64,000 nt of DNA. It comes from a virus. The notes below the pieces were generated by a model. The model was not told the DNA's origin, did not search any database, and worked only from the letters and a program-made list of their open reading frames with translations. The translations under genes and the position numbers were made by a program. Below are positions 6,010 to 62,448 of the stretch, piece after piece; within the stretch, counting starts at the first letter, position 1; each line of letters starts with the position of its first letter. The DNA lies in IMG/VR virus record IMGVR_UViG_2842357229_000002, positions 300 to 64,299 of that record. One strand, 5' to 3'.

Positions 6010-6061
6010 GAAGTCTCCTCTTCTGTGGTGTGATTGCCGATTGGTGGTCGGCGGGTGGTGG

Positions 6062-8747: not shown

Positions 8748-8805
8748 GGCTGTCTCCTCTCGTGGTGTGGTGGGTGGTCGAGGCTGGTTGGTTGCCAGTT
8801 TTATT

Positions 8806-25077: not shown

Positions 25078-25151
25078 ATCAGGTCTCCAATAGTGTGGTG
25101 GTGGTTAGCGCGGTTGCGCTTGTTTGCCCTTGGTGGGGCTTGCCGCCCGCG

Positions 25152-39063: not shown

Positions 39064-39102
39064 CTCTCGTCTCCTCAGTGTGGTGCGTTTCGGTATATTG
39101 GC

Positions 39103-40635: not shown

Positions 40636-40673
40636 CTAAGTCTCCTCTTGTGGTGTGGTGATTTGGTAGACGG

Positions 40674-41306: not shown

Positions 41307-41366
41307 GTCGGTCTCCTGTGGTGGTGTGGTGGTGGGTTTCTCTATTTTCTCTACAAATCACTTCAA

Positions 41367-48494: not shown

Positions 48495-48531
48495 AATCGT
48501 CTCCTCTATGTGGTGGTGCATTGGTGTTTCA

Positions 48532-54857: not shown

Positions 54858-54916
54858 ATTAGTCTCCTCTTGTGTGGTGAAGTGGCGGGCCGCTGGTGAC
54901 GACCCGCCGGTTTATT

Positions 54917-55507: not shown

Positions 55508-55681
55508 TTTTAGTCTCCTTCTGTGGTGGTTAGTTGGTGAGTGCGTAGTAGCGCCAAGCGCCGCTACCGTATGCGGTGTGCGCACATTCGCGCAGCACGT
55601 ATTCAAGCCACGCCCAACGACTGCCGTTGCGCGTTTTGACGACGACGGGATGCCAGGCAAACCATTGCTCTTGGTGGAACA

Positions 55682-58903: not shown

Positions 58904-59193
58904 GCTGCTCCTTCCGTTGTGGTGTTCGGCTTCAGCGGCCGACGCTTGGTGAAGTCGACCGGGATGACGTTGTCGTCCACGGCCTGCTTGGCAGCGACCG
59001 GTGGCGTAGGCATGTCGTCGTCATCGACGAGGTCAAGCTCCCATTCGTGGAACTGCAGAACCTCCAACGTAGGCGCCACACGGATGATGACGATGGTTCC
59101 CATGAAGCCGATGACGATGCCGAAAACGTTGGCGTTCATCTTGTGCTGAACGATGTCGCCGGTGCCGATGCAGTCGCAATCAGGGCAACTCAT
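58900..59193 (-). CDS. Hypothetical protein
   Basis: 97 aa, coupled. Confidence 0.65.
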   Translation of the reverse strand: MSCPDCDCIGTGDIVQHKMNANVFGIVIGFMGTIVIIRVAPTLEVLQFHEWELDLVDDDDMPTPPVAAKQAVDDNVIPVDFTKRRPLKPNTTTEGAA

Positions 59194-59459
59194 GCCGCCA
59201 CCTGCTCTTCCTCGACGTCGGCCGACCGCGCCAGCGAAACCGGCATCAGGCCGGAGGTCGTCGAGCAGCCGCCGTTGTGGGGGATCATCTTGACGAACTT
59301 GTTGTCATTGGCTGCAAGTGGCGGGCCGTCGCGAAGCGGCTTGCGATTGCCGCCGAGGCGATAAAAAACGCCGGGGCCGGTCATATTGAATTTGTCGCCA
59401 ATTTGTCTGAGCGACATGCCTGCTCGATGCAGGGCGCGCATTTCTGCTGTCTGGTCCAT
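59190..59459 (-). CDS. Small HTH protein, Cro-like position
   Basis: RAGMSLRQIGDKFNMTGPGV.YRL; first gene of the leftward operon. Confidence 0.7.
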   Translation of the reverse strand: MDQTAEMRALHRAGMSLRQIGDKFNMTGPGVFYRLGGNRKPLRDGPPLAANDNKFVKMIPHNGGCSTTSGLMPVSLARSADVEEEQVAA

Positions 59460-59514
59460 TTGGTCTCCTCTTGTTGTGGTGGCTTCTTGAAAAGGCGTCC
59501 GGTTTGACGCCGTG

Positions 59515-59572: not shown

Positions 59573-60205
59573 ATGACCGGCGGAAAATCCCGCTTTTCTC
59601 AGATGCTGATCGATCGCCAGAAGCAAGCCGGTATGACCGACAAACAGATTGCAGATCGCTACAACTGGATTCAGCAGACCTTTAACCGCTGGAAGATTGC
59701 CAGCCTGCCGCGCAAGAACATGTTCCCATCGATCGCCAACTTTCTTGGCATAACGCCTGAAGAAGTAGAGCGACTCGTTGAAGATGCAGCAACAACGGAA
59801 AACGCCGTTAAAAACGTAAGCATCTTCGGAATGGCAAATATCCACGGCGCGGTTAGCGACCGCAAGACCGGAAAATACAAGTTCCGTCGGCCTGGTCGTC
59901 ACGCAACTGCGATTCCAACTGGCCGCTATGCCATCATGATACAGACGGAAGTCATGATGCCTGCGCTTGTTGCTGGCTCGAAAGCTTGGGTTGATCCTTC
60001 CGTTACACCGCGCCTTGGCAACGATGTTATGGTGCACGCCGATGGCGGAAAGGCGTGGGTTGGACAGTTGCGCGGCGCCGGTAAGCGCGGCGGCACGACG
60101 GAGGTGACGATCACGCAACACGCTGCTGGCACGATGGTTATTCGCGATGTCCAGGCAATACATGTGATCGTCCTATCCGAAAGGGTGTCAAGCTGGTCGG
60201 ACTGA
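59573..60205 (+). CDS. Repressor-like HTH protein with degenerate S24 domain
   Basis: N-terminal HTH; C-terminal YAIMIQTEVMMP...VDPSVTPRLGNDVMV lacks the catalytic Ser and Lys. Confidence 0.75.
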   Translation: MTGGKSRFSQMLIDRQKQAGMTDKQIADRYNWIQQTFNRWKIASLPRKNMFPSIANFLGITPEEVERLVEDAATTENAVKNVSIFGMANIHGAVSDRKTGKYKFRRPGRHATAIPTGRYAIMIQTEVMMPALVAGSKAWVDPSVTPRLGNDVMVHADGGKAWVGQLRGAGKRGGTTEVTITQHAAGTMVIRDVQAIHVIVLSERVSSWSD

Positions 60206-60210
60206 CGGCG

Positions 60211-60240
60211 CTTGACAAATTTGTGGAATGTTTGGTATAC
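60211..60240 (+). promoter_or_regulatory. Promoter with ACAAATTTGT operator
   Basis: CTTGACA...GTATAC; palindrome at 60215-60224. Confidence 0.7.
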
Positions 60241-60241
60241 A

Positions 60242-60452
60242 TTCCGCGCTGATGTGGTGTCAGTATCGAAATCCGGGGTTAACGACGGGCCGCAAGTCAG
60301 TCTCCTCCCCCGAGAAAGTAGGAGCTCCAATCGCAAGCCGATAATCACGTGGTGGTGGCCTTCGGGTCGGCTTGCTGGTTGGGGTGTGCTTATCCATTCC
60401 TTGCGGAAACAGAAAATGCGCCAGCCGGCGGTTAGCCAGCGGCGCTATTTTA
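60242..60452 (+). ncRNA. Candidate small RNA
   Basis: Bounded by a promoter and a terminator (GCGCC...GGCGC TATTTT); several hairpins including cUUCGg; no ORF with an RBS on this strand. Confidence 0.55.
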
Positions 60453-60520
60453 TGTCGGCTTGTCGTCGGTGTGGTTTCTCATGGCGTCCTCCCTAATTGG
60501 TGTTCAGCAAACTGGTGCTT

Positions 60521-60631
60521 CTATAAATAGGAAAGGCCGCCTTCATGGCGGCCTGTTCTTCTTCTGGGAGGACCAGCGCCTTTCGGCGCTACTGCTCTTC
60601 TGGGAGGGTTTTCCTTCTTTGCTCGCCGCAT
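60521..60631 (-). CDS. 36-aa Arg-rich peptide (not in ORF track)
   Basis: AGGAGA RBS, TATAAT at 60674-60669; MRRAKKENPPRRAVAPKGAGPPRRRTGRHEGGLSYL. Confidence 0.5.
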   Translation of the reverse strand: MRRAKKENPPRRAVAPKGAGPPRRRTGRHEGGLSYL

Positions 60632-60853
60632 GCTTGTCTCCTTTAAATCTCGCCTTGATAAATCGTCGATTATAACTTGTGGCCGCGAAGCCTGAAAAAT
60701 GTTCTCGTAAAACTTTTATATTTTGGGCTAGGCGTTTCTGCTTAACCCTACTTACAATTTCACTAGTACCATTTACATATTTGAGTCGTCAATAAGATTG
60801 TTTGTAAATTGTTGCGATAAATGATAAGTAGTTGAAAAATTGAGGACAAAACT

Positions 60854-61576
60854 ATGAGCCGACTTTCCGATACGTTAACCGCGAAGGCCGTGGAGCTTGG
60901 CATCAGCCAGACCGAATTGGCCGAGCGTACCGGCGTACTACAGCAAAGCATCAGCGCGCTTTTCAACGGCGACGTCGCGTCCCCCCGCAAATGGCGAGAG
61001 ATAGCGCGCGAGCTGCAGATCCCCGAAAGCGAGATGCGCGAAATGATGATTGAGGCCAGCCGCGCCACCGGCAAGACGACGAGGCTGCCTCGCACATTCA
61101 AGGTGGAAGAGGCGTTTCACGAGGTGCCCCATAGGGTTCGCGTTGACATGACGGAAATCCCCGCGCCAATACGGCCAGGCAAGCTCATTCCCGTGCTCGG
61201 CGAGGCTGCGGGCGGCGCCGACGGGCGCTATTGGTTCAATGGCAATGTGATTGACTACGTTGCTTGCCCCCCGTCGCTCGACGGCGTGCCGGGGGCGTAC
61301 GCTATCTATGTCGATGGCGAATCCATGTCTCCCCGCTATCGCCCCGGCGAGGTCGTTTGGGTGCATCCACATAAGCCGGCTCGTCGAGGCGATGACGTGA
61401 TTATTCAGATACGACCGAAGGAAGAGGGCGAAACCCCCTACGGCTTCATAAAGGAATATGTTGGCTGGTCTGGCAACCGCCTGACGCTTCGCCAGCACAA
61501 TCCCGAATCACAACTCACCTTCGATCGAGACGAAGTTGTAAGCGTCCATCCGATCGTCTTGGCGGGAAAATACTGA
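60854..61576 (+). CDS. CI-like repressor (HTH plus S24 peptidase)
   Basis: GISQTELAERTGVLQQSISAL; VLGEAAGG cleavage-site region; VDGESMSP and GFIKEY catalytic dyad. Confidence 0.9.
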   Translation: MSRLSDTLTAKAVELGISQTELAERTGVLQQSISALFNGDVASPRKWREIARELQIPESEMREMMIEASRATGKTTRLPRTFKVEEAFHEVPHRVRVDMTEIPAPIRPGKLIPVLGEAAGGADGRYWFNGNVIDYVACPPSLDGVPGAYAIYVDGESMSPRYRPGEVVWVHPHKPARRGDDVIIQIRPKEEGETPYGFIKEYVGWSGNRLTLRQHNPESQLTFDRDEVVSVHPIVLAGKY

Positions 61577-61621: not shown

Positions 61622-61684
61622 TTCTCCTCAGACGCAAACACCAAAGCGTCGCCGCCAAGCGCGGTCACCACCGAGGAGACGACA

Positions 61685-62357: not shown

Positions 62358-62448
62358 GCAGCCCATTAAGAGCGCGGCCCGTTGATGGCTGGCTGCAACT
62401 ACCGTTGCGGGCCGCGTTTTTACCAACCACCACAAGAAGGAGACCAAA

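Follow-up and report, generated by a model that had tools for sequence, protein, structure and literature searches.

The window analysed in this work, a stretch of 64,000 nucleotides (nt) covering positions 300 to 64,299 of the IMG/VR record IMGVR_UViG_2842357229_000002, represents a complete 65-kb provirus, a relative of Rhizobium phage 16-3, and judged by its sequence the source phage is a temperate, 16-3-like rhizobiophage. Its immunity region comprises a cro-like gene, a gene for a 210-amino-acid CI-like repressor paralogue, which is cleavage-dead and homologous to p070 of phage 16-3, and the C repressor gene, beyond which rightward genes run up to the integrase. The p070-like and C repressor genes are separated by a gene-free gap that harbours a putative small RNA gene in the orientation of the repressors. 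An earlier note on this DNA had proposed that the gap encodes an operator-controlled small RNA complementary to the translation leaders of the phage itself. Here, comparative analysis of the RNA, its promoter and its predicted targets was applied to the provirus and its relatives.

Results

A conserved folded RNA encoded on the plus strand

The fold of the RNA was derived from an unbiased MAFFT alignment of 23 homologues of subfamily 1, on which RNAalifold was run. The program found the helices P1, P4, P5 and P6, with compensatory changes in 14 of the 20 predicted pairs, and helix P2 was added to this structure by eye. With P2 included, 94.1% of the cells are paired, compared with 80.0 ± 0.8 in shuffled alignments (0 of 500), and compensatory changes are seen in 19 of the 27 pairs, compared with 9.9 ± 1.7 in the shuffles; the controls with a slid register gave 33-59% of paired cells. 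All eight pairs of P4 and five of the seven pairs of P2 show compensatory changes, and the stem of P5 covaries between CAC/GUG, CAG/CUG, CGG/CCG and CGA/UCG. Thus, covariation supports four of the five predicted helices. Three pairs (5-21, 10-16 and 123-133) are G·U in 22-23 of the 23 sequences and would become A-C mismatches if the minus strand were read; therefore, the RNA is assigned to the plus strand. The earlier note had come to the same strand from a G-U pair in the hairpin GGCC-TTCG-GGTC, which does lie at 60357-60368, and the covarying structure bears this out, as its G·U pairs fit the plus strand alone.

Three elements of the predicted structure are exposed, namely the UGUGGUG loop of P1, the pentamer UCCUC in the internal loop of the middle domain and the GUGGUG loop of P5 (Table 1). 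UCCUC is situated inside GUCUCCUC, and GUCUCC is invariant in the aligned homologues. The segment 60349-60358, which contains the P5 loop, reads GTGGTGGTGG (RNA GUGGUGGUGG). In the modelled ensemble of folds, the core of loop 1 is predicted to be 0.74-0.94 unpaired and UCCUC 0.93-0.99 unpaired. The linker between the middle and 3' domains has the form UAGUA(C/G)GA across the family and is invariant or nearly so, as is the GUGGUG loop of P5. In subfamily 2 the RNA is about 125 nt long, and its 3' domain is replaced by a single GUGGUG hairpin that is followed by the terminator.

No open reading frame (ORF) stays open across the homologues on either strand, and a scan for tRNA and tmRNA found none. 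Two reservations expressed in the earlier note can therefore be put aside: the ORF of 11 codons on the minus strand (MRPVVNPGFRY) is not conserved, and the AGGAG at 60320-60324, onto which the anti-Shine-Dalgarno segment was thought able to fold back, is ACG in 13 of the 23 homologues. Overall, these comparisons show a conserved, folded plus-strand RNA equipped with its own predicted promoter and terminator.

Distribution and novelty of the RNA family

A pattern scan of viral contigs yielded 46 distinct homologues of the RNA. These copies were picked by required motifs and cannot demonstrate that the motifs are conserved; therefore, a second, motif-independent set of proviruses was built, anchored on the alignment of the p070-like repressor protein. 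In this set, the RNA lies directly 3' of the p070-like repressor gene in 54 of the 57 readable loci. A locus search of viral contigs with a single protein returned no loci, whereas the alignment-based search did recover them. A scan of isolate genome contigs with a loose pattern was discarded, as its matches fell in unrelated phyla and look like chance.

The RNA is present, although unannotated, in the phages 16-3, AP-16-3, RHph_TM3_3_14B and RHph_X2_25, and it also occurs in metagenomic relatives. Among the named phages, blastn with the RNA detected RHph_TM3_3_14B only; the copy in 16-3 is too diverged and was located by synteny. The identity of this copy with immX, a genetically defined locus of 16-3, was considered and rejected, since the 16-3 record places immX at 18.3-18.9 kb, some 18 kb from the RNA. 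The search of Rfam returned nothing relevant in the window, in the interval 59900-60900 at E <= 10 or in eight related loci, and neither this RNA nor the leader cassette described below turned up in the literature searches. By these comparisons, it is a new family of predicted RNAs, of which rhizobial phages and prophages contain about 60 members.

Promoter, operators and terminator of the RNA gene

The putative RNA gene constitutes an independent transcription unit with a predicted promoter and a Rho-independent terminator, as is usual for trans-acting small RNAs. In more than 40 homologues, a TTGACA box and a TAnnnA box keep a constant spacing to hairpin P1. The -35 box of the window's RNA promoter is overlapped by the palindrome ACAAATTTGT, which occurs in seven exact copies in the window, compared with at most about 1.5 expected. 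Five of these copies overlap the -35 box of minus-strand promoters, each of which follows a terminator and precedes a leader with the cassette; of the remaining two, one lies between the cro-like and p070-like genes and the other on the RNA promoter. Together, the seven copies mark a putative regulon of promoters. In subfamily 2, the palindrome is located within the spacer of the RNA promoter and not at the -35 box, and therefore it appears to be a binding site rather than merely part of a -35 element. The TTnACAAATTTGTnAA site in the divergent promoter of the p070-like gene and the recognition helix QQxFxxWK of its product are kept together at 26-33% protein identity. From this joint conservation, we infer that the 210-amino-acid p070-like repressor is most likely the protein that binds the ACAAATTTGT palindrome. 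All 46 homologues from the motif-based scan have the palindrome upstream, while among the proviruses it is lost or altered at the RNA promoter in G001, G002 and L262; the lytic promoters of G001 retain it.

A second inverted repeat of the window straddles the -10 box. In the relatives, the repeat at this place differs in sequence and stays symmetric, and in RHph_X2_25 (L311:480-505) it is perfect over 9 of 9 positions. It could be a phage-specific operator or the RNA hairpin of a read-through transcript. At its 3' end, the RNA gene is bounded in the window and in many relatives of subfamily 1 by a bidirectional terminator about 35 nt past P4, while in subfamily 2 a GC stem followed by UUUUCGUUUU forms a textbook intrinsic terminator of the plus strand. 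The only sub-threshold Rfam match in the region, to mir-26 at 60512-60576 (29.7 bits, compared with a gathering score of 57), was rejected as a microRNA; it is the GC-rich bidirectional terminator hairpin of the neighbouring site.

A leader cassette complementary to the RNA

The three exposed elements of the RNA are the Watson-Crick complements of a cassette found in the leaders of phage genes: CACCACA, 1-5 nt, the Shine-Dalgarno (SD) sequence GAGGAGAC, 3-6 nt and AUG. The pattern CACCAC-N0-16-GGAGAC occurs 12 times in the window, compared with 0.06 expected. Of GAGGAGAC itself, the coding (minus) strand has 14 copies and the plus strand one, and 11 of these copies are ribosome-binding sites situated 3-7 nt before a start codon. 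The heptamer of loop 1 and its complement together occur 32 times in the window, compared with 5.6 expected, and 27 of these occurrences read CACCACA in the mRNA sense. A CACCAC-type tract was found at most 30 nt upstream of 21 of the 76 minus-strand starts with an SD sequence, compared with 2 of the 33 plus-strand starts. The conserved AC after the SD core, for which pairing with the 3' end of 16S rRNA presumably does not account, is the complement of the invariant GU in GUCUCC.

The cassette heads the cro-like gene and, in all, at least 12 early and middle genes of both arms (Table 1), and it was not found in the start regions of either repressor gene. It also occurs in RHph_TM3 and in phage 16-3 (p061, p072, p089, p104 and p106), and the cro-like gene carries it in about 40 lineages. 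The claims of the earlier note fared well on this point, since its promoter with operator, terminator and both seeds all lie where it had placed them, and its seed complementary to many ribosome-binding sites of the phage is matched by the 12 cassettes and 11 GAGGAGAC sites. Two of its statements had to be extended: both of its seed regions are present, but the elements number three, because the invariant P1 loop UGUGGUG also matches CACCACA, and the operator that it had described on the RNA promoter is found on target promoters as well.

Co-variation of the RNA and the leaders

The repressor of provirus G001 is 33% identical to that of the window, and its RNA retains the fold and both GUGGUG loops. 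At the position of the anti-SD element this RNA reads GUCUCUCC, which exposes the pentamer UCUCC at the same place of the internal loop. The coding strand of G001 contains GGAGAGAC 12 times (2 in the control); 11 of these copies are ribosome-binding sites, most of them preceded by CACCAC, and one is the antisense of the RNA. GAGGAGAC occurs once in G001, while the window contains 14 copies of GAGGAGAC and none of GGAGAGAC. Thus, an accessible and conserved seed, as expected of a trans-acting small RNA, appears to co-vary with its putative targets across about 11 leaders.

In provirus G002, the RNA (L299:3060-3230) lacks GUCUCC, while both GUGGUG loop motifs and the linker persist. The 5' arm and loop of its P1, CUUCUGUGGUG, could pair with the CACCACAGGAG leaders of the same provirus (L307 and L308), with one G·U pair. 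The variant suggests that recognition in this family depends primarily on loop 1. Together with the covariation, the terminator and the cassette, the concerted change in G001 supports the general proposal of the earlier note, a plus-strand RNA flanked by an operator and matching many leaders.

Expression hints from a relative

Assembled RNA-seq contigs were available for a locus of subfamily 2 (L027), where the minus strand encodes the RNA at about 1037 to 905. In run X17, a contig of 39 nt with a depth of 1412 falls inside the RNA (L027:988-1023), and the depth of its flanks is 27-79. The loose end of this contig is an Illumina adapter that begins just past P1, at the conserved AUAU/GGAA linker; the adapter end may represent a processing site or a stop of reverse transcription. 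In another run, the depths are 32 for the C repressor, 28 for the RNA region, 18 for the p070-like gene and 2-6 for the adjacent early lytic genes. These depths hint at an abundant RNA and at an immunity region that is active while the lytic genes are low.

Table 1. Elements of the small RNA gene, genes of the immunity region and predicted target leaders. Positions refer to the window, except for those preceded by the number of a relative's locus.
Feature	Position	Strand	Remarks
Small RNA, about 205 nt	60247-60452	+	conserved structure; no Rfam match; no conserved ORF
Hairpin P1	60248-60264	+	compensatory changes in 4 of 6 pairs; all cells pair
P1 loop UGUGGUG	60253-60259	+	invariant; complement of CACCACA
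Middle domain	60272-60315	+	P2 (60272-78 with 60308-15) around a small hairpin and an internal loop
Anti-Shine-Dalgarno element AGUCUCCUC (DNA AGTCTCCTC)	60299-60307	+	UCCUC exposed in internal loop
Linker AGUAGGA	60317-60323	+	single-stranded, conserved (AGUACGA elsewhere); from alignment
3' domain	60332-60376	+	long helix P4 (60332-39 with 60369-76) bearing P5 and P6
Hairpin P5	stem 60346-48/60355-57; loop GUGGUG 60349-54	+	compensatory changes in 2 of 3 pairs
Hairpin P6	60358-60/60365-67	+	UUCG loop; near-invariant G·U pair; loops UUCG or GAAA
Small RNA promoter, predicted	60212-60241	+	-35 TTGACA 60212-60217; 18-nt spacer; -10 TATACA 60236-60241
Palindrome operator ACAAATTTGT, putative	60215-60224		overlaps -35 box of RNA promoter
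Copies of ACAAATTTGT	8822, 38782, 39119, 40690, 48548, 59515, 60215		
Second inverted repeat GGAATGT-N7-ACATTCC	60226-60245		straddles -10 box; unique in window
Bidirectional intrinsic terminator, predicted	60412-60452		A run, GC stem (60412-60451), U run; RNA fold and minus-strand scan match
cro-like gene	59190-59459	-	left edge of immunity region; start codon 59459
CI-like repressor paralogue gene, 210 amino acids	59573-60205	+	phrog_4 (transcriptional repressor) match; homologue of 16-3 p070
Gene-free gap, 650 base pairs	between p070-like and C repressor genes		harbours the small RNA gene
C repressor gene	60854-61576	+	HTH_3 and Peptidase_S24 domains
Cargo genes in the gap of relatives	L004:1880-3973, L006:1354-1887, L008:3713-6119, L311:777-2843		
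Predicted target leader, cro-like gene (start 59459)	59463-59481	-	
Predicted target leader	55513-55528	-	
Predicted target leader	54862-54879	-	9-nt exact complement to 60299-60307
Predicted target leader	48499-48518	-	palindrome promoter upstream
Predicted target leader	41311-41334	-	
Predicted target leader	40640-40660	-	palindrome promoter upstream; 9-nt exact complement
Predicted target leader	39069-39085	-	palindrome promoter upstream
Predicted target leader	25083-25103	-	
Predicted target leader	8752-8772	-	palindrome promoter upstream
Predicted target leader	6013-6030	-	9-nt exact complement
Predicted target leader, rightward gene starting 61685	61666-61680	+	
Predicted target leader, rightward gene starting 62449	62428-62444	+	
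Looser cassette copies	58903, 57770, 53926, 51316, 46547, 38712, 11502		

Elements between the RNA and the C repressor gene

On the minus strand of the gap, an ORF of 10 codons (MRNHTDDKPT, 60454-60486) with a strong GGAGG site terminates at the bidirectional terminator, and a start of the type MRN, MRK or MNR recurs at its position in L243, L247, L260, 16-3 and L044. Farther from the RNA, an arginine-rich ORF of 36 amino acids (60521-60631, minus strand) lies downstream of a sigma-70-like leftward promoter (60669-60698, minus strand). This promoter and ORF occupy the position of PR and p069 in phage 16-3, and a leftward transcript from the promoter would converge on the small RNA gene. In the relatives, the stretch that separates the RNA from the C repressor gene is occupied by convergent cargo genes of differing kinds (Table 1), one of which has a weak ParB_N match. 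Thus, the gap appears to behave as an insertion slot for accessory genes.

Comparison with known regulatory RNAs

The closest functional likenesses of the RNA are C4 of phages P1 and P7 and CI of phage P4, on the one hand, and the alphaproteobacterial anti-SD small RNAs NfeR1 and Cuckoo, on the other; by the covariance models and by the defining architecture, the RNA belongs to neither group. C4 and CI are likewise folded phage-encoded RNAs of an immunity region, whose loops are complementary to the ribosome-binding site or leader of lytic-control genes, with two short complementary elements acting together. In the RNA described here, the corresponding complementarity connects UGUGGUG, GUGGUG and UCCUC with CACCACA...GAGGAGAC. 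However, C4 and CI are processed from the leader of the single operon that they control, C4 blocking the icd/ant ribosome-binding site and CI causing premature termination, whereas this RNA has its own predicted promoter and terminator, a different fold and complements at no fewer than 12 gene starts in both arms. Its gene comes after that of a repressor and is followed by convergent genes or by none. The Rfam C4 covariance model gave no match at the gathering threshold in the window and eight related loci, nor at E <= 10 in 59900-60900.

The small RNAs ar14/NfeR1, Cuckoo (CcsR/RcsR1) and AbcR1/2 originate from the same host clade, act in trans and possess C/U-rich anti-SD motifs, and as here many mRNAs are expected to be repressed at the ribosome-binding site. 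These RNAs differ in that they are chromosomal, regulated by stress or nutrients and directed at host mRNAs, with CCUCCUCCC-type motifs in hairpin loops. In contrast, the present RNA is viral and combines one UCCUC of an internal loop with two GUGGUG loops, and the leaders of its own virus are its predicted regulon. The two or three hairpins with CCUCCUCCC-type loops that characterize ar14/NfeR1 and Cuckoo are absent, the hairpin loops being GUGGUG or tetraloops and the sole C/U-rich element being that of the internal loop, and the Rfam models of ar14/NfeR1 and Cuckoo matched neither the window, including 59900-60900, nor the eight related loci.

Two further groups share the phage context. The sar RNA of phage P22 and OOP of phage lambda are small RNAs of temperate phages that are encoded near the immunity region, transcribed against the lytic direction and modulate the balance between lysis and lysogeny, but each is a cis-antisense RNA fully complementary to the one target that it overlaps (ant for sar and cII for OOP). 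Opposite the present RNA there is no conserved ORF, and the context of the opposite strand varies between the relatives. STnc6030 of BTP1, DicF and AgvB are likewise regulatory RNAs borne by prophages, which serve in superinfection exclusion or in control of the host. Some of the prophage small RNAs already known are made in lysogens and counter related phages that come in (PMC12197685). A 2025 review of phage small RNAs describes no RNA as matching a repeated leader cassette of its own genome, and lists none from rhizobial phages (PMC12197685).

Discussion

We consider it probable that the segment 60247-60452 encodes, on the plus strand, a trans-acting, multi-target anti-Shine-Dalgarno RNA that acts on the leaders of the phage itself. 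According to the proposed mechanism, the loops would nucleate pairing on CACCACA, and the anti-SD element would then close over the SD sequence and block the binding of the 30S subunit. The blocked mRNA would probably be exposed to decay, and one RNA could silence many phage operons at once. Six first genes with the cassette are situated behind ACAAATTTGT promoters. Since the same operons carry both the operator and the cassette, the repressor and the RNA would form a double lock, transcriptional and translational, the likely uses of which would be to keep the prophage silent and to block superinfecting relatives. The RNA promoter carries the same operator in most lineages, and therefore the repressor would also tune the output of the RNA. 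As a speculation, the lock could be lifted by read-through from the leftward promoter at 60698-60669, which would yield a perfect anti-RNA.

Several observations weigh against this proposal or limit its force. The ends of the transcript are those that we infer from the promoter and terminator, and a scan for consensus promoters did not call the RNA promoter, because the last base of its -10 box is A. Within the anti-SD element, 5 nt are predicted to be open, while GUC and the C run are paired. Predicted binding energies separate the cassette leaders incompletely from other gene starts: in cofolding with the RNA, 14 cassette leaders have a median of -8.35 kcal/mol, compared with -5.3 for 95 other starts, a difference that gives modest support (one-sided Mann-Whitney p = 0.001), and several of the best energies belong to sites that lack the cassette. 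Short-oligonucleotide duplex energies barely discriminate in this GC-rich genome, and full-length RNAduplex was abandoned, as it returned long meaningless duplexes equal to those of the reversed control. The co-variation amounts to one clean event (G001) and one architectural variant (G002) and not to a statistical series; in L258 and L260, moreover, the cro-like leaders read GAGGAGAGA(C/U), yet the RNA keeps GUCUCCUC. The contigs of the relative give no reliable strand, ends or levels, and their depth was therefore taken only as a hint. A CA-rich tract beside a strong SD sequence could be a mere translational enhancer. Finally, because the operator is common to the RNA and its targets, they may be switched on together, and the shared operator may fit a role in timing or damping as well as one in immunity.

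The arrangement of the locus itself raises another explanation, in which the RNA is mainly a cis-antisense or convergent element directed at the leftward PR-equivalent transcript, and the dispersed leader matches are secondary. In its variants, either the RNA destroys the read-through RNA from PR, or the read-through from PR neutralises the RNA. The RNA gene is indeed oriented toward the promoter-like site at 60698-60669 and toward small minus-strand ORFs, with the bidirectional terminator alone in between; in the relatives, no more than about 10 nt separate the ends of the convergent cargo genes from the RNA; and the annotated PR of 16-3 points toward the RNA. However, such an element would need neither conserved loops nor a covarying fold nor motifs that stay invariant while the opposite strand varies from holding no gene to holding cargo genes of several kinds, and the genome-wide cassette and the co-variation in G001 would be left unexplained. 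We therefore regard a mainly cis-antisense function as unlikely, and the cis-antisense and trans roles are not mutually exclusive. The motifs of the RNA could also be read on the minus strand, where CACCAC and GAGGAGAC are necessarily present, followed by a TTG start codon, as the leader of the 11-codon ORF, with no plus-strand RNA at all. This reading is very improbable, since neither that ORF nor its spacing is conserved, no frame is open across the homologues, the three near-invariant G·U pairs would become A-C mismatches, the terminator of subfamily 2 lies on the plus strand and the conserved promoter points rightward.

Two other explanations accept the RNA and assign it a different mode of action. 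In one, a protein of the phage or the host, for instance an RNA chaperone or RNase, binds the GUGGUG loops and the UAGUACGA linker, and the leader tracts compete for this protein or are delivered to it, so that pairing alone is not the silencer. Protein-titrating RNAs typically have duplicated loop motifs, and in this family the two identical loop motifs and the linker, which has no obvious target, are the most conserved parts and persist in G002 without the anti-SD element. Nevertheless, the leaders hold the complement CACCAC and not the same motif, and therefore a shared protein would have to bind the sequences of both strands; the change of the pentamer in G001 alongside the leaders argues for RNA-RNA pairing instead. 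We give little credence to such a sponge function, and about as little to the other explanation, in which leaders paired with the RNA are activated or protected in the course of lytic growth, for instance because structures are opened, RNase E is blocked or translation is timed. Here the RNA would be induced together with its targets from promoters sharing one operator, and the same palindrome at the same position of the RNA and target promoters does suggest co-regulation; in addition, several cassettes are preceded by hairpins with CCACCAA loops, which could undergo remodelling. Against this, pairing over the SD core normally blocks initiation, as established for anti-SD small RNAs, and the RNA gene lies in the immunity region in the orientation of the repressors. 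Moreover, the palindrome is missing or changed at the RNA promoter of G001, G002 and L262, while G001 keeps it on its lytic promoters, and the contig depths of the relative suggest, albeit weakly, that the RNA is made while the lytic genes are low.

Beyond the anti-Shine-Dalgarno function of the RNA, a broader scheme can be offered more tentatively, as a possibility that we would rather doubt than assert: a genome-wide RNA immunity code. Under this scheme, each early or middle operon would combine an operator-promoter with a CACCACA-SD leader, and the leader would be read by one RNA, whose gene adjoins that of the operator-binding repressor. Co-evolution of the RNA and the leaders (GAGGAGAC with UCCUC and GGAGAGAC with UCUCC) would provide a second determinant of heteroimmunity among related phages, and release of the lock would be triggered by the promoter opposite the RNA gene, which the C repressor controls.

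The phage immunity RNAs known so far belong to a few enterobacterial phages, each RNA guarding a single operon. The RNA described here has escaped annotation even in 16-3, a model phage with a long history of study, in which the hypothesis is open to direct testing by genetics, as temperature-sensitive mutants of the C repressor exist. The leader and the RNA would also make up a natural portable pair for multi-gene translational control in alphaproteobacteria. If confirmed, the system would be a compact two-layer global switch, in which one RNA is matched to a leader on a dozen or more genes, and it could account for the two CI-like repressors being kept in these phages.

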